From the IMG/VR virus record IMGVR_UViG_3300035646_000027: a stretch of 5,642 bases of DNA; one strand, 5' to 3'. Source of the DNA: a virus. The position numbers were made by a program, and so were the translations under genes. Below are positions 1,731 through 4,156 of this stretch, piece by piece. The notes below the pieces were generated by a model. That model saw nothing but the letters and a program-made list of their open reading frames with translations, had not been told where the DNA came from and did no database searches. Position 1 is the first letter of the stretch. Every line of letters starts with the position of its first letter.

Positions 1731-1751
1731 TTTTTACCACCTCTTGTTTTT

Positions 1752-1780
1752 TTTATATCATGCCCGGCTTGATAAGTCAA
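1752..1780 (-). promoter_or_regulatory. Sigma70-like promoter driving the minus-strand operon (peptidase and the genes downstream of it).
   Basis: The minus strand reads cccTTGACTtatcaagccgggcaTGaTATAAAaaaaacaagaGGTGGtaaaaaATG. The -35 is TTGACT, the spacer is 17 nt, and the extended -10 is TGnTATAAA. The predicted TSS is near 1745, about 15 nt upstream of the peptidase ATG. The upstream region is A/T-rich with phased T-tracts. Confidence 0.45.
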
Positions 1781-1831
1781 GGGTTTTTGAAAAAAACTTT
1801 TGACGTTCAAGTCGGATGCCCGCGGCAGGCG

Positions 1832-1988
1832 TTTTCAACATTTTCAACGTAGTTTTCAACATTTAAACATTGTTAAACTTTAACACAATAAAGTGTTTCA
1901 ACAATTCAACAAGTTTTAAACAAATCTTTCAACATTCTTTTTAGTGCTTTTTCTTCGTATCAATGTAAAGAAAAAGCACTTTTCAACT
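1832..1988. repeat. Iteron-like array of at least 7 copies of TTTCAAC(A) plus 3 degenerate TT(A)AAC(A) copies. It contains phased T-tracts at a period of about 10-11 bp, which predicts curved DNA.
   Basis: Plus-strand copies occur at 1832, 1841, 1853, 1896, 1905, 1926 and 1981, with degenerate copies at 1862, 1871 and 1914. Two of them form the 9-mer CAACAAGTT (1907, 2016). On the coding strand the unit reads GTTGAAA(A). Confidence 0.5.
1943..1980. repeat. Perfect 13-bp inverted repeat (AGTGCTTTTTCTT / AAGAAAAAGCACT) with a 12-nt loop. It forms an AT-rich hairpin inside the iteron region.
   Basis: The arms are 1943..1955 and 1968..1980, perfectly complementary. The loop is cgtatcaatgta. Confidence 0.6.
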
Positions 1989-2043
1989 TTTCCACATACT
2001 CTACTACTACGACTACAACAAGTTATATAATAAAGGCAAAGCG

Positions 2044-2097
2044 TTATCCCTTGAAGCGAAGCGAATAGGGATTACAGGGTAGAACGTACTCCCTATT
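2044..2097. repeat. Cluster of alternating-orientation 7-mers (TATCCCT > ATAGGGAT < TCCCTAT) able to form two mutually exclusive hairpins. The first loop contains the tandem GAAGC GAAGC.
   Basis: 2046..2051 atccct pairs with 2067..2072 agggat (loop tgaagcgaagcgaat). 2064..2071 aataggga pairs with 2090..2097 tccctatt (18-nt loop). Confidence 0.5.
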
Positions 2098-2101
2098 TTA
2101 C

Positions 2102-2140
2102 CGTGCGCGTGTACGCGCGTTTCGCGCGTGCGCGTGCGCG
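2102..2140. repeat. GC-rich alternating purine-pyrimidine tract, (GCGCGT)n-like, with Z-DNA potential. It folds as a hairpin with an ACGCGCG-TTT-CGCGCGT core stem.
   Basis: The perfect 7-bp stem is 2113..2119 / 2123..2129 with a 3-nt loop. It can extend to 2102..2140 with G:C pairs interrupted by T/G mismatches. It is a roughly 80% GC island in an otherwise AT-rich intergenic region. Confidence 0.55.
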
Positions 2141-2164
2141 GTCTAACGCCTTAAGAATACGCTT

Positions 2165-2207
2165 AAATCAATAAAAGCCCAGTACCTTACTTGATAGGTA
2201 CTGGGCT
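2165..2207 (-). terminator. Rho-independent terminator downstream of VP4, marking the end of the VP1-VP2-VP4 transcription unit.
   Basis: On the minus strand, 13 nt after the VP4 TAA, AGCCCAGTACC-tatcaagtaa-GGTACTGGGCT forms a perfect 11-bp stem with a 10-nt loop, followed by TTTATTGATTT. Confidence 0.55.
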
Positions 2208-2219
2208 AGGTAACACCAA

Positions 2220-3239
2220 TTACAAAATACCACGTTTTTTCGTTTGTTTTTTGGTGACACGTTCTTTGGTCTCTAAGACGGTTTTATAGTCTTGATTCTC
2301 TAGCTGTAGTCTCTTTTCTTTCATTGCGTTTTTTTGTCGGTTTTGCTTAATTCTCCACAATCTTTGTGGGTTTTCTGCTTCCATCTGTTTTTCATAGTAT
2401 CTTGGAATTTGTGCCCGTTTTCCGTTGACGCATTGAATGTAACCTTGTCGCCAGATTTCCGCTTTGTGCTCTTGATAGTAGTGGTCTCCAAGTCCTGGCT
2501 TTAAGCTCATGCAAGCAAATGGTTTTGTTTGCCCTAGTTCATAGTACGAATTAGCTTTTTTGCCGTCTATTTCGTACATTTTTTTTGTAACGTATCCTGC
2601 AACATATCGATACGTTTCTGGAACTGCTTGTGCTATCTGGATTTGTCCCATTCCCCACAGGTCTGCTAACCATTTACTGGTATAGTATCCGTTGTGGTGA
2701 ATTTTGTACAGATTTTCTAGGTCTGTTGGTTTCCAGCCGTATAGTATCATATGGTAGTGTGGCCTTGCTGTCTGTTCTCCGTACTCACCCGCCACAAAAT
2801 AGCGTAATTTGCCCTTGTAAGCCTTCCTGAGGCGTTTTAAGAATTTTTGAATATCTTCATACAGCAAAATTTGAACACTGCTAGGGCGCTTCTTTCCCGG
2901 CTTCCACGTGTATTGTACCTTTCGCATGATTTCCCCAGTTTTTACTATCATGCCCGGTACATGTTCATCATCATAAGTTAGTGTTATAAACCAAACTTCT
3001 TCTTTTGGATAGTCTCGCGCCTCAAGCTCTATGCGTGTTGTCCAGTCCTCTCGTTGTCTAATTCTGCATCCGATACATTGCCCGCATGGAATCAACATGA
3101 CTTTTGGATTATACATCAAATCTTCATATCTCAGCTGTTTCCCGCTTAACTGAGAAAAGCGGGCGAGTGAATATACCCGCCCGCTCTGTTCTCTATCATC
3201 CGGGTTGTACAGCCTTATTAGCGGCTTGTAACAACTCAT
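2220..3239 (-). CDS. VP4: Replication initiation protein VP4, an HUH rolling-circle endonuclease related to phiX174 gene A protein.
   Basis: 339 aa. It has a CxxC zinc-finger-like motif (PCGQCIGCR), motif [11 protein letters not shown], motif [10 protein letters not shown] and motif [14 protein letters not shown] (compare phiX174 A protein YVAKYVNK, with two catalytic Tyr). A weak SD GGGTGA lies 9 nt upstream. The ATGA overlap with VP2 indicates translational coupling. Confidence 0.9.
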
Positions 3240-4099: not shown

Positions 4100-4139
4100 A
4101 ATCTAAAGTAGCCCGCAATAATGCGGGCTTCCTCCTTTC
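4100..4139 (-). promoter_or_regulatory. Structured leader between VP1 and VP2. A strong SD AAAGGAGGA lies 31 nt upstream of the VP2 ATG, and an 8-bp hairpin (AGCCCGCA-ttat-TGCGGGCT) occupies 20 nt of the spacer.
   Basis: The minus strand reads taa-aaattgtacaaaaaaacgaaaGGAGGaAGCCCGCAttatTGCGGGCTactttagattATG. The stem is 4110..4117 / 4122..4129. There is no other SD near the VP2 start. Confidence 0.4.
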
Positions 4140-4156
4140 GTTTTTTTGTACAATTT

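Follow-up and report, generated by a model that had tools for sequence, protein, structure and literature searches.

Gokushoviruses are the dominant ssDNA phages of mammalian guts, and we found no description of their replication origins in the searchable literature. At origins of the phiX174 ori(+) type, recognition and nicking take place at CAACTTG^ATA on the packaged strand, and phiX174 itself relies on PriA-type priming and the Rep helicase. To our knowledge, the packaged strand is the coding strand in all characterised Microviridae, and we know of no microvirus that needs DnaA. Direct repeats of 7 to 9 nt beside hairpins are typical of Rep-binding origins (those of geminiviruses, circoviruses, and many plasmids), such iterons normally co-vary with their Rep, and the orientation of the origin element defines the nicked strand in CRESS-DNA viruses. 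P1 oriR, pSC101, F, and RK2 are theta replicons in which one to a few DnaA boxes assist Rep on its own iterons; DnaA is, in addition, a known transcription factor, and clusters of DnaA boxes can titrate it. Some gokushoviruses carry a dif/XerCD integration module. The A-site of the ABC primosome is said to be the work of Masai and Arai, and the bacterial basal unwinding system (BUS) was reportedly described by Richardson in 2016 and 2019 and by Pelliciari in 2021. The BUS is defined in part by DnaA-ATP-dependent strand separation for which boxes and trios are both needed, its spacer is most commonly 12 to 13 bp from the upstream box (PMC8287927), and 4-nt spacers are found in Firmicute origins too (PMC8287927 supplement). 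Microviruses are viewed as exchanging almost nothing with their hosts (PMC9239249).

We describe here the control region of a gokushovirus whose conserved core, 1832 to 2036, may be a phage-borne mimic of a bacterial chromosomal origin, a reading to which we give a probability of roughly 0.6. That host DnaA binds this cassette, in whatever role, we consider highly probable from the comparisons that follow.

Layout of the control region

The stretch of DNA analyzed (the window; 5,642 nt, IMG/VR record IMGVR_UViG_3300035646_000027) holds a circular gokushovirus genome of 5,563 nt with a 79-nt terminal overlap and is the complement of the coding strand, the genes lying on its minus strand. The control region, 1731 to 2219, lies between the VP4 stop (2220) and the start of the M15 peptidase gene (1730). 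A sequence-only reading had listed seven elements here, all of which are present, and had taken the region as one of replication and expression control. This view is supported, and the region does contain a positionally conserved promoter, a hairpin with a T-run, and an origin-like repeat array. The list stands, but the strand roles had to be amended: with the genes on the minus strand, it is the VP4 transcript that the "terminator" would end, and the "promoter" belongs to the gene that comes next, that of the M15 peptidase. The outcome named in that reading as its refutation, namely that relatives have none of the motifs in common, is contradicted: the core and the hairpin recur in 46 gokushovirus records of GenBank and in over 150 genomes of IMG/VR. 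A comparison set of about 180 related genomes was used to sort the elements into conserved and variable ones; on this comparison, the TTTCAAC repeats, the (CTA)n tract, and the adjacent AT run group as one conserved cassette (1832 to 2036), and the CG hairpin and the ATAGGGA cluster as variable, optional inserts. The features are as follows.

1752-1780, minus strand: sigma-A/sigma-70-type promoter of the peptidase operon (sequence and positional conservation)
1832-1861, plus strand: distal array of three DnaA-box-like repeats (sequence, BLAST to relatives)
1895-1934, plus strand: middle group of box-like repeats (sequence, conservation in relatives)
1943-1980, no strand assigned: AT-rich 13-bp hairpin, in a slot of constant length (45 nt) that separates the tandem boxes from the next repeat (folding z-scores)
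1980-1996, plus strand: tandem DnaA boxes with one base in common (layout as in Firmicute origins)
1997-2000, no strand assigned: 4-nt spacer from the proximal box to the first trio (TACT on the plus strand)
2001-2021, minus strand: DnaA-trio tract (sequence, invariance, oriC match)
2013-2024, minus strand: phage-specific invariant block AACTTGTTGTAG, linking the trios to the AT run
2022-2036, no strand assigned: short AT-rich run, GTTATATAATAAAGG as read on the plus strand, candidate unwinding element
2043-2097, no strand assigned: cluster of ATAGGGA/TCCCTAT inverted repeats, inserted lineage-specifically where the AT run gives way to the CG tract (BLAST, folding)
2100-2142, plus strand: alternating CG/CA tract, able to fold, on the non-coding strand alone, into a hairpin of 20 bp that includes G·T pairs
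2164-2217, minus strand: conserved hairpin directly after the VP4 stop (conservation, covariation)

No Rfam family matched the region, and the single hit, a sub-threshold Termite-leu match inside VP4, was taken as chance. A hidden gene in the core was not found, its ORFs being at most 34 aa long and none of them conserved. The cassette and the post-VP4 hairpin are both absent from SpV4 and phiMH2K, which rules out the cassette as a general gokushovirus feature.

The promoter comprises a -35 element TTGACT (1780-1775), a 17-nt spacer, and a -10 element TATAAA (1757-1752) with TG in front of it; an SD sequence, AAGAGGTGG (1745-1737), comes ahead of the peptidase ATG at 1730. It was missed by the scan tool because the -10 hexamer ends in A. 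The promoter sequence is not conserved (BLAST coverage of 5 to 13% in relatives); its position is, in that a promoter with at least 10/12 consensus matches in the last 130 nt of the intergenic region was present in 41/61 relatives versus 2/61 shuffled controls, with a median of 30 nt from the end of the -10 element to the start codon. Position thus bears out the operon promoter of the sequence-only reading.

The repeat cassette and bacterial origins

TTTCAAC occurs in six exact copies, all on the plus strand and all within 1833-1987, versus 1.2 expected, and none of 200 shuffles reached six. The distal repeats read TTTTCAACA, TTTTCAACG, and TTTTCAACA on the plus strand, with starts 9 and 12 nt apart; by BLAST this array is shared with about 45% of the closest relatives, an equivalent form is present in nearly all cores, and the origin in a Ruminococcus metagenome-assembled genome (MAG; L212) has an array of the same kind. 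The middle boxes, GTTTCAACA (1895-1903), AATTCAACA (1903-1911), TTTTAAACA (1914-1922), and CTTTCAACA (1926-1934), have 92% coverage and 74 to 88% identity across 60 relatives and are conserved in clade 2, and one middle-group position in L138 is a perfect DnaA box, TGTGGATAA. The tandem boxes are TTTTCAACT (1980-1988; three mismatches to TTATCCACA) and TTTTCCACA (1988-1996; one mismatch), a 9+8 layout that is also that of B. subtilis (TTATCCACA/AATCCACA) and Clostridium origins (PMC8287927 supplement); the bacterial matches read TTATCCAC/TTTTCCACA. Among distinct cores GTGGAAAAGTTGAA is at least 98% invariant, the distal box of the pair reads TTATCAAC in 8 relatives, the proximal box reads TGTGGAAAA or AGTGGAAAA in 43/55, and TGTTGAAAA, TGTGGAAAA, GTTGATAA, and the perfect TGTGGATAA interchange at homologous positions. 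The array is almost entirely unidirectional. Boxes defined by the strict E. coli consensus (at most two mismatches) are not enriched, with three in the region and 161/1,000 shuffles reaching three, and the box claim is therefore based on comparative evidence and on the dialect of two MAG origins.

On the plus strand, the trio tract reads CTA CTA CTA CGA CTA CAA CAA (2001-2021), presenting TnnT repeats as in the DnaD recognition element (DRE); on the coding strand it reads 5'-TTG TTG TAG TCG TAG TAG TAG-3', that is, 3'-GAT GAT GAT GCT GAT GTT GTT-5'. The three box-proximal trios are invariant (at least 98%), relatives often have five perfect TAG trios and up to five or six, and 16 nt of the tract are identical to the oriC trio tract of Lachnospira multipara. 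The spacer is always 4 nt long in the 55 relatives with (TAG)3 or more; its sequence, G-rich on the coding strand, changes from genome to genome (AGTA, GCAA, AGGC, and others). A GC-rich cluster between box and trios is described for the BUS (Richardson 2016, quoted in PMC7561715); the spacer of the window, TACT/AGTA, is not GC-rich, and relatives have GCAA, AGGC, GGGC, and GGTA. The block AACTTGTTGTAG, which links the trios to the AT run, is at least 98% invariant in 116 distinct cores and absent from the bacterial oriC matches. Beyond the trios lies an AT-only run of 13 to 20 nt that is found at the same position in all cores and likewise after the trios in bacterial origins; the stretch in the window, GTTATATAATAAA (2022-2034), is shorter than in most bacterial matches.

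Set against the published definition of the BUS (PMC8287927), the proximal box lies within the permitted two mismatches to TTATCCACA, and TTTTCAACT, with its one shared base, serves as the optional tandem box (at most four mismatches and at most 3 bp away). The box-trio spacer, 4 nt from the proximal box and 12 nt from the upstream box, falls within the range of 0 to 16 bp; at least three trios with a central A and the consensus 3'-GAT-5' lie on the right strand (3'-GAT GAT GAT GCT GAT-5'), and an AT-rich region follows them. The orientation of the trios relative to the TGTGGAAAA-reading box strand matches the supplement table of PMC8287927. The (CTA)n tract, listed as a separate element in the sequence-only reading, thus corresponds to DnaA-trios and, with the repeats and the AT run, reproduces the BUS. 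The location differs: rather than on a chromosome near dnaA/dnaN, the module lies between VP4 and the peptidase gene of a 5.6-kb microvirus and therefore resembles a chromosomal origin without being one, as it belongs to another kind of replicon.

The genome has this BUS-like configuration a single time, and it was seen in 1/2,000 shuffled genomes and 2/5,000 shuffled intergenic regions. Between clades with only about 45% identity in VP1 and VP4, no other DNA matches as well as the cassette. When viral contigs were searched with the pattern, 88/93 matches were genomes of microvirus size, always with the pattern downstream of VP4; a pattern built on the canonical box TTATCCACA gave no microvirus match. 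The exact pattern TTTTCCACA-N4-CTACTACTA also has matches in bacteria, on at least 120 contigs, all of which lack VP1 and VP4, and is located between DnaA and DnaN (Pfam) in L203, L232, and L238. TTTCAAC boxes are rare in those bacterial origins (median, 0 copies); 19 copies are found in L212 (Ruminococcus sp.), however, and 17 in L238 (gut Eubacteriales), grouped in the gaps on either side of dnaA, and neither MAG carries a phage at these TTTCAAC-filled origins.

The cassette lies forward in 114 distinct genomes and is inverted in 5, with the hairpin and genes staying in place, so that 96% of genomes share one cassette orientation, which indicates some preference of polarity. We propose that the cassette is a self-contained module, either orientation working, and inversion in five genomes suggests that it most likely acts on duplex DNA via host DnaA, not VP4. 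The block AACTTGTTGTAG has AACTTG in common with phiX174 ori(+) and flips along with the cassette in the five genomes, and AACTTGTTG as a viral-strand nick site was for this reason set aside. A dif-like XerCD site was also ruled out: the B. subtilis-type dif core TATATATTATGTAAACT had no match in the region with up to three mismatches, and 0/120 module-bearing bacterial loci encode VP1 or VP4.

The sequence-only reading had made the TTTCAAC repeats iterons bound by VP4, forming a rolling-circle origin with the neighboring hairpins. The replicon does encode an HUH-type initiator, VP4 (Pfam PF23343, E = 5.8e-17), with the motifs FITLTY, HYH, and YVAGYVTKK (two-tyrosine), and the repeats are highly non-random; a PDB sequence search with VP4 returned nothing useful. 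Iterons, however, would co-vary with the cognate Rep, and identical repeats stand beside VP4 proteins of about 45% identity, interchange with TGTGGAAAA and the canonical TGTGGATAA, and fill the phage-free dnaA-dnaN origins of two Clostridia. They are, moreover, tied to trios at BUS geometry, and rather than keeping a fixed arrangement by a nick-site hairpin, the array varies in its distance to the conserved hairpin from 84 to 350 nt, the repeats lie 170 to 350 nt from this hairpin, the only deeply conserved one, and the array is inverted independently of it in five genomes. We regard iterons of VP4 as a highly unlikely identity for these repeats.

The other hairpins are less constant. The AT-rich hairpin (-11.5/-11.9 kcal/mol; z, -5.4/-6.1) occupies a slot whose length is constant in relatives, but a strong hairpin is confined to the window, L005, and L011; in most relatives the slot contains a weak palindrome, TTTAACG..CGTAAA (mean z, -2.5), with no strand preference. 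The CG hairpin folds at -22.8 kcal/mol (z, -4.4) on the plus strand versus -14.9 (z, -0.5) on the coding strand. Of 81 distinct genomes, 62 have CG/CA tracts, and the coding strand is in every case the CA-type one (A, 0.19; T, 0.08), with a hairpin more stable on the non-coding strand in 49/62 and equal in 12/62. Where the cassette is inverted, the tract neither moves nor turns with it, by which a clamp tied to the unwinding element was ruled out. The ATAGGGA cluster folds marginally (z, -0.75 on the plus strand and -2.07 on the minus strand) and is common to only about 5% of relatives.

These hairpins and repeats could instead form a complementary-strand origin, of the G4/M13 or ABC-primosome type, that starts second-strand synthesis on injected ssDNA. 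Significant hairpins are present at 1943-1980, 2100-2142, and 2176-2207, ten clade-2 cores have inverted boxes (TGTGGAAAA...TTTTCCACA), and a DnaA-dependent primosome on an ssDNA hairpin with a DnaA box is an established system (PMC6127211). A box in an ssDNA hairpin stem, as in the A-site of the ABC primosome, is nevertheless possible in only 10/118 distinct cores and not in the window, which has no inverted box, and the five inverted cassettes would put a strand-specific signal on the wrong strand. The G4/M13-type priming signal that the sequence-only reading saw in the AT-rich hairpin fits poorly with this inversion and with its strength being limited to the window and its closest kin, and good folding of the CG hairpin is restricted to the non-coding strand. 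Such an origin is very unlikely in our view; as the post-VP4 hairpin is strand-fixed, the complementary-strand reading survives for that element only.

The array might also be a DnaA-binding regulatory or titration element, not an origin, which times the adjacent promoter by the DnaA-ATP level of the host or soaks up DnaA and disturbs host initiation in the manner of datA, with neither unwinding nor replication beginning there. It sits 50 to 250 nt upstream of the positionally conserved promoter, and titration would work in either orientation, in keeping with the inversions. For regulation or titration, however, there is no need of an AT run or of trios set at a constant 4 nt from tandem boxes, yet these are the most invariant parts, and in the inverted genomes the promoter-proximal end of the array changes, with promoters at least 100 nt away. 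We think a purely regulatory or titrating role unlikely and favor origin mimicry.

A look-alike of a bacterial origin-opening module in the main non-coding stretch suggests that the phage probably recruits host DnaA, of which we found no description for this phage family. With the architecture, non-random occurrence, conservation, match to real origins, and invertibility of the cassette observed, we infer DnaA binding, unwinding, helicase loading, and a replication stage dependent on them. On the double-stranded replicative form, host DnaA would bind about 8 to 10 same-orientation DnaA boxes, written in the dialect of the likely, presumed host lineage (TTTTCAACA/TTTTCCACA). From the tandem boxes a DnaA-ATP oligomer would extend over the fixed 4-nt spacer onto the TAG trios (3'-GAT-5') and melt the adjacent AT-rich run, the opposite strand presenting TnnT repeats for DnaD; loading of host helicase and primase could follow, and with it replication, or some other opening, of the replicative form. 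The cassette would be flanked by two strand-fixed elements, the post-VP4 hairpin (2176-2217) and the sigma-A promoter (1752-1780). Against a mimic, a fast-amplifying phage might avoid an initiator that is tightly regulated in its host, no microvirus is known to need DnaA, and SpV4 and phiMH2K lack the module. The unenriched strict-consensus boxes, the spacer of the window, the short AT run, the better match of the proximal box, and the preferred orientation of the cassette also count against it.

The hairpin after VP4 and strand polarity

The hairpin at 2176-2207 (z, about -6) has a 12-bp stem with 7 GC pairs, after which the coding strand continues with TTTTATTGATT. On that strand the element consists of the flank GGTGTTACCTAG, the stem arm AGCCCAGTACCT (2207-2196), the loop ATCAAGTA, the stem arm AGGTACTGGGCT (2187-2176), and TTTTATTGATTT (2175-2164); on the plus strand the loop reads TTACTTGATA, which contains ACTTG·ATA. 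Coverage is 100% and identity 95 to 100% in 60 relatives, and in clade 2 the stem is swapped and the loop kept. Double changes affect 8/11 stem pairs, a covariation score reached by 0/500 shuffles. Even among microviruses whose VP1 identity is 30 to 40%, neither the loop TTACTTGATA nor the flank varies. The T-run is absent in some relatives, and the element recurs in 20 very distant microviruses, where it is turned the other way; the one inspected (L309) has no T-run on either strand.

The sequence-only reading had called this element a terminator, and directly after the VP4 stop there is indeed a GC-rich stem-loop with a T-run (TTTTATTGATT) behind it on the transcribed strand, with the best terminator score in the genome; the hairpin can also terminate the VP1-VP2-VP4 transcript in this genome. 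That 2176-2217 is simply the intrinsic terminator of that transcript appears somewhat unlikely. Terminators do not constrain the loop, and here the loop CCTATCAAG and the flank GGTGTCACCTAG are invariant and the stem covaries. Many relatives have no T-run, the distant microviruses carry the element in the opposite orientation, and wobble pairs lean to the non-coding strand and not to that of the mRNA (28 versus 1 by a permissive count; 6 versus 1 by a strict count, which is not significant at p = 0.125).

We consider 2176-2217 the best candidate recognition site for VP4 as a phiX-type two-tyrosine initiator. The phiX174-type motif ACTTGATA is invariant and lies on the non-coding strand in this lineage and on the coding strand in the 20 distant microviruses. 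The control region might then be bipartite, an invertible host-DnaA oriC mimic joined to a strand-fixed hairpin whose loop, TTACTTG^ATA, would be the VP4 nick site, with the antisense strand packaged; in this full form the proposal is tentative and the odds are clearly against it. Hints of antisense packaging come from the motif orientation and from the CG hairpin, which forms only on the non-coding strand and is TG-type there. The non-coding strand is also the T-rich strand, which is not decisive as a polarity test; the coding strand of phiMH2K is A-rich as well, which speaks against antisense packaging. The wobble pairs lean to the non-coding strand too, a further hint by the permissive count, but the strict count is not significant. 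Antisense packaging would, furthermore, set transcription head-on against rolling-circle synthesis. If the loop is the nick site, these gut gokushoviruses would displace and package the antisense strand and be negative-sense in a family thought to be uniformly positive-sense, and the hairpin result raises the question of strand polarity for these phages.

Implications and comparison with known systems

The analysis names two concrete elements, with coordinates, as candidates for gokushovirus replication. Should host DnaA open the replicative form, a rolling-circle ssDNA phage would depend on the chromosomal initiator, its replication would be coupled to the host DnaA-ATP cycle, and it would be an exception to the view that microviruses and hosts exchange almost nothing (PMC9239249). 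The TTTCAAC-type dialect is rare among bacterial origins and matches two Clostridia MAGs, so that origin mimicry could predict hosts without culture, and the cassette offers, within 200 bp, a compact candidate replication module for hard-to-manipulate gut Clostridia.

P1 oriR, pSC101, F, and RK2 resemble the phage as mobile replicons with their own initiator gene and DnaA boxes in the control region; they are not known to have a trio module, whereas the phage is a rolling-circle ssDNA replicon in which boxes and trios make up a complete BUS-like unit. The ABC primosome A-site (PMC6127211) makes DnaA-dependent DNA synthesis on a small ssDNA replicon an established possibility, but it needs a box in an ssDNA hairpin stem, which is absent from the window and from 108/118 cores. 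The origins of CRESS-DNA viruses (circo-, gemini-, and nanoviruses) share with the post-VP4 hairpin a covarying stem and an invariant loop motif beside the Rep gene and differ in Rep superfamily (two-tyrosine phiX type in the phage), in loop motif, and in the nearby repeats, which in the phage are host DnaA boxes. The origins of phiX174 (CAACTTG^ATATTAATAAC..., protein A) and pC194 (CTTG^ATA) have the ACTTG·ATA core of the phage loop TTACTTGATA, and protein A and VP4 are alike in their HUH and Y-x-x-x-Y catalytic layout; unlike in phiX174, the motif lies in an intergenic hairpin loop and not in the initiator gene, on the strand complementary to the genes, and the nick site is putative.

The BUS (B. 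subtilis incC; PMC8287927; PMC6669920) and the phage cassette have in common tandem boxes that overlap by one base, three or more trios at a spacing of 4 nt, AT-rich DNA beyond them, TnnT (DRE) repeats on the opposite strand, and more same-orientation boxes upstream, and the relative orientation of the phage module is that of B. subtilis, C. acetobutylicum, C. botulinum, and S. pneumoniae (BUS tables, PMC8287927). The cassette differs in belonging to a 5.6-kb rolling-circle ssDNA phage and not adjoining dnaA/dnaN, in a window spacer that is not GC-rich, in a short AT run (13 to 20 nt), in the phage-specific invariant AACTTGTTG block after the trios, and in the fixed 45-nt hairpin-bearing slot that splits the box array; the better-matching box is the proximal one in the phage and usually the upstream one in bacteria. 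Closest in dialect are the origins of Ruminococcus sp. RGIG7051 (L212) and the Eubacteriales MAG (L238), which use TTTTCAACA, CTTTCAACA, and TTTTCCACA as the phage does, in dense arrays with 9- to 14-nt spacing, although their boxes run in both orientations and those of the phage almost all one way. The L238 origin ends in CTTTCAAC/TTTTCCACA-GACA-(CTA)5, an AT run, and then GGCGCGCGCG, an order like that of the phage, and the oriC of Lachnospira multipara ATCC 19207 (L203) has 16 nt of the trio tract in common with it. Homology between the phage and these three origins does not extend beyond about 35 nt, and the likeness to bacterial origins points to mimicry or ancient capture, not to recent transfer.

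Genome layout and conservation of the intergenic region

The genome is circular and 5,563 nt long, the 5,642-base window carrying a 79-nt terminal overlap. In GenBank it most closely resembles gut gokushoviruses of pig, human, and monkey origin, to which parts of it are ~77-80% identical. Every gene is encoded on the minus strand, which makes the window the complement of the coding strand; along the latter, the order is VP1 (major capsid protein, PF02305), VP2, VP4 (replication initiator, PF23343), a 489-nt intergenic region (2219-1731), an M15 peptidase, small ORFs, VP5, and the VP3 scaffold, after which VP1 closes the circle. The motifs FITLTY, HYH, and YVAGYVTKK in VP4 are laid out as in two-tyrosine initiators of the phiX type. 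The short VP1-VP2 intergenic region (4100-4156) contains an 8-bp GC-rich hairpin on the coding strand, AGCCCGCATTATTGCGGGCT, which is terminator-like with a weak T-run; a sub-threshold Rfam match to Termite-leu RNA inside the VP4 gene (3102-3189, minus strand; 26 bits, where the gathering score is 51; E = 0.017) was taken as chance.

All of the elements that a sequence-only reading had listed for 1731-2219 were found in the window. Comparison of 60 complete regions between VP4 and the peptidase gene, 407-994 nt in length and drawn from phages whose VP4 identity is 83-96%, showed that the hairpin after VP4 and the core, or cassette (1832-2036), are conserved and that the other elements are variable.

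Elements of the intergenic region (window coordinates) and their coverage among relatives
2209-2176, coding strand: hairpin after VP4; 100% of relatives, 95-100% identity including the loop
2032-1896: core; 92%
1860-1833: triple repeat; about 45%
2100-2142: CG hairpin; 5-10%
2043-2097: ATAGGGA cluster; about 5%
1830-1731: promoter-proximal stretch; 5-13%

In several GenBank records, the match to the window is confined to the core. The TTTCAAC array comprises six copies, all on the plus strand and inside 1833-1987, where 1.2 were expected and none of 200 shuffles reached six. The AT-rich hairpin (1943-1980) and the hairpin at 2176-2207 fold far above shuffled sequence on both strands (z about -5.4 to -6.3). 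The former occupies a slot of constant length (45 nt) that forms a strong hairpin only in the window and two relatives (L005 and L011) and a weak palindrome elsewhere; it could serve as a bend or bind a protein. The proposed CG hairpin held up on the plus strand (-22.8 kcal/mol, z -4.4) and failed on the coding strand (z -0.5), and the ATAGGGA inverted repeats are present with a marginal fold, in an insert restricted to the closest kin of the window. The promoter was recovered as TTGACT-17-TATAAA with an upstream TG, 21 nt ahead of the peptidase start codon; its position is conserved and its sequence is not.

Of 81 distinct genomes, 62 have an alternating-GC tract, which is invariably CA-type on the coding strand and hence TG-type on the other. 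For this reason, strong hairpins with G·T pairs form only on the non-coding strand, which gives the more stable fold in 49 of the 62. The tract stays put, with its asymmetry tied to gene orientation, even where the cassette is inverted; selection on one single strand, Z-DNA potential, and CpG deamination are possible explanations. A GC palindrome on the coding strand after the last repeat (GCCTGCCGCGGGC, 1818-1830) recurs in three other genomes (L001, L163, and L159) and folds no better than shuffled sequence (z 0.17). Longer intergenic regions (L095, L115, L126, L037, L063, L072, and others) hold additional recurring cassettes, for example GGGG(N)CCCC hairpins with TTGCGTGTACGCCCC...GGGGCTACCG after them and, downstream of the repeats, a module reading GGAATGGATT...CCGC...ACGGCAAGGCGCT. 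The region as a whole behaves like a patchwork of interchangeable modules.

An origin-like cassette in the dialect of particular Clostridia

The cassette has a non-random architecture resembling that of the bacterial oriC basal unwinding system (BUS). The plus strand at 1980-2034 reads TTTTCAACT abutting TTTCCACA, then TACT, CTA CTA CTA CGA CTA CAA CAA, and GTTATATAATAAA. A BUS is defined by a DnaA box (two mismatches at most), in most cases joined by a second box in tandem, then a short spacer and three or more DnaA-trios of consensus 3'-GAT-5', with an unwinding region after them (PMC8287927, PMC6669920). Written in the notation of the supplement of PMC8287927, the phage sequence has a 9+8+4+trios layout and orientation identical to those of three bacterial origins.

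BUS modules on the trio strand, 3' to 5' (bacterial sequences from PMC8287927)
Bacillus subtilis: box 1 AATAGGTGT, box 2 TTAGGTGT, spacer CCGG, trios GATGATAATGAAGATGAT
Clostridium acetobutylicum: box 1 AATAGTTGT, box 2 TTAGGTGT, spacer GAGG, trios GATGATGATAATGATGAA
Clostridium botulinum: box 1 AATAATTGT, box 2 ATAGTTGT, spacer TCGG, trios GATGATGATGATGATGAT
Phage window: box 1 AAAAGTTGA, box 2 AAAGGTGT, spacer ATGA, trios GATGATGATGCTGATGTTGTT

The C. difficile trio tract (top strand, CTA CTA CTA TTA CTA CTA) is written likewise to that of the phage, and the phage strand opposite the trios bears 5'-TnnT-3' repeats such as DnaD recognises in Firmicutes (PMC10201434). A box (at most two mismatches), a spacer of up to 16 nt, and (CTA)3 co-occur once in the whole genome; by chance the combination arose in 1 of 2,000 shuffled genomes and 2 of 5,000 shuffled intergenic regions. 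Scored against the strict E. coli consensus, the intergenic region of the window has only three DnaA boxes, which is no enrichment, and the case for TTTCAAC as a DnaA box is therefore comparative.

Three or more TAG trios, exactly 4 nt of variable sequence, and a proximal box follow one another in 55 of 61 intergenic regions. Among these 55, the proximal box is TGTGGAAAA in 35, AGTGGAAAA in 8, and TGTTGAAAA in 5, and the distal box is GTTGAAAA in 44 and GTTGATAA, the complement of TTATCAAC, in 8. The repeats are strongly polarised (mean of 8.1 per region in one orientation versus 0.5 in the other), and at homologous positions the sequence alternates among TGTTGAAAA, TGTGGAAAA, and, in one genome (L138), the perfect box TGTGGATAA. 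Conservation is deep: the blocks AACTTGTTGTAG, GTAGTAGTAG, and GTGGAAAAGTTGAA are invariant over 116 distinct cores, and carriers include a second clade without the peptidase gene whose VP4 and VP1 are only ~45% identical to those of the window; between the window and a second-clade genome, the core is the best DNA match.

Among viral sequences, the cassette is specific to microviruses. A search of 2.9 million viral contigs for the exact pattern TTTTCCACA-N4-CTACTACTA gave 93 stretches. Of these, 88 are microvirus-size genomes, and in all 88 the coding strand carries the trios, 84-350 nt downstream from VP4; the canonical-box version (TTATCCACA) was found in 17 large viral contigs and in no microvirus, and a BUS-like module is absent from SpV4 and phiMH2K. 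The 17 contigs (L292-L308; 8.7-160 kb), with TTATCCACA-N4-CTACTACTA, may represent host origins misassigned to viruses, or else large phages or plasmid-like elements that bear oriC-type modules. Two clade 2 genomes (L155 and L167) show, downstream of VP4, tandem duplications of the AT run, AACTTGTTG, trios, tandem boxes, and slot; these partial duplications may reflect genuine variation in copy number or errors of assembly.

In bacteria, the same pattern occurs in at least 120 contigs, none with VP1 or VP4 genes. Almost all have an abutting upstream box (TTATCCAC directly before TTTTCCACA), a GC-rich 4-nt spacer, three to six CTA trios, and AT-rich DNA. Pfam domains place the site between DnaA and DnaN in Lachnospira multipara, a Lachnospiraceae MAG, and a gut Eubacteriales MAG. 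The L. multipara module, TTTTTAAAC TTTTCCACA CTGC CTACTACTACGACTACGAAAATATATA, has 16 nt of trio tract in common with the window. TTTCAAC-type repeats are rare in the matched origins (median of 0 copies), the exceptions being a Ruminococcus sp. (L212, 19 copies) and the gut Eubacteriales MAG (L238, 17 copies), in which they cluster in both gaps flanking dnaA. Their arrays, e.g., GTTTTCAACATCTTTCAACAATCCACTTTCAACACTTTCAAC, resemble the phage array, and that of L238 ends in CTTTCAAC TTTTCCACA GACA (CTA)5, an AT run, and then GGCGCGCGCG. The cassette matches the origin dialect of these particular Clostridia. Because such arrays fill the L212 and L238 origins, we read the repeats, previously taken for iterons, as a lineage-specific DnaA-box dialect. 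The hosts are probably Ruminococcus-like Clostridia, with which a GGAGG-type ribosome-binding site and the M15 lysin are consistent.

The cassette is also invertible. It is forward in 114 distinct genomes, and in five others (L027, L037, L055, L063, and L072) the whole unit, comprising repeat array, slot, tandem boxes, spacer, trios, AACTTGTTG, and AT run, has flipped with respect to VP4 and its hairpin and to the genes downstream. An element acting on duplex DNA fits this tolerance, whereas a viral-strand nick site or a single-strand priming signal does not. In keeping with this, the ABC primosome needs a box within a hairpin stem, an arrangement that only 10 of 118 cores, that of the window not among them, could form. 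These clade 2 cores (L088, L091, L095-L097, L109, and others) have a terminal inverted box, TGTGGAAAA-N16-TTTTCCACA, which could form a single-stranded DNA hairpin with a duplex DnaA box, by analogy with the A-site of the ABC primosome.

The hairpin after VP4

The hairpin at 2176-2217 was earlier described as a terminator, and the window does have a coding-strand hairpin with a T-run right after VP4; the T-run, however, is absent in many relatives, and the invariance of loop and flank does not fit that description. The stem shows compensatory changes and is wholly replaced in clade 2 (GTGGGCCTAATCCT/AGGATTAGGCCCAC), while the start of the loop (CCTATCAAG) and the flank GTGTCA are unchanged. 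An alignment of 34 sequences has 87% of its cells paired and double changes at 8 of 11 pairs; no shuffle reached the covariation score. At least 120 viral contigs contain the element GGTGTCACCTAG-stem-TATCAAGTAA, and 159 gut genomes have it with TATCAAG on the coding strand. In 20 very distant microviruses (4.1-5.5 kb; VP1 29-40% identical; L309 and genomes in the range L314-L375), none of which has the DnaA cassette, it is inverted relative to the genes; stems vary freely there, and the loop TTACTTGATA and flank CTAGGTGACACC are invariant. L309, the sole distant genome inspected closely (element at 1362-1405), has no T-run on either strand. The hairpin is probably more than a terminator.

Its loop includes ACTTG·ATA. 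Protein A of phiX174 cuts between G4305 and A4306, within codons Q107-D115. We take the sequence cut to be CAACTTG^ATA, which agrees with those codons. Initiators of the pC194 type cut at CTTG^ATA (PMC5037232). Given the invariant loop and flank, the covarying stem, the wide spread, and this motif, the hairpin is the best candidate for the VP4 recognition site, an assignment that we make tentatively. In the lineage of the window, the motif lies on the non-coding strand, and if the hairpin were the nick site, the gut lineage and the 20 distant microviruses would package opposite strands. A virion strand antisense to the genes is nevertheless unlikely. Weak hints toward it are the CG-tract asymmetry, the T-richness of the non-coding strand (undercut by the A-rich coding strand of phiMH2K), and a wobble bias toward the non-coding strand of 28 to 1 under permissive counting and 6 to 1 (P = 0.125) under strict register.

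TATCAAG has four copies on the coding strand (0.34 expected; ~4002, 2477, 2196, and 1774), and CTTGATA has none; the sites are in the hairpin loop, the peptidase promoter spacer, VP4 (encoding a conserved Tyr-Tyr-Gln-Glu also present in phiMH2K), and VP2. In SpV4 (L290), AACTTGATAAG lies at 1642 on the coding strand, ~90 nt upstream of the capsid gene, and matches 9 nt of the phiX174 ori(+) core, a possible lead to the SpV4 nick site.

Proposed mechanism and comparison with known origins

From these comparisons, it is likely that the cassette binds host DnaA in some role, and we put at roughly 0.6 the probability that it is an origin-type unwinding element. We suggest that host DnaA would fill the box array on the duplex replicative form and oligomerise from the tandem boxes onto the TAG trios, whereupon the AT run would melt and DnaD, helicase, and primase could enter. 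The outcome would be theta-type amplification of the replicative form or exploitation of the opened region by other steps, while VP4 would act at the strand-fixed hairpin for rolling-circle synthesis and the promoter would drive the downstream operon.

The literature that we searched yielded no paper linking DnaA with Microviridae or gokushoviruses and no description of the post-VP4 hairpin motif in Microviridae. Theta origins of plasmids and phages are well known to include DnaA boxes, and bacterial BUS modules have been described in detail; what is new here is a chromosomal-origin module, in what appears to be the dialect of the host, in a rolling-circle single-stranded DNA phage.
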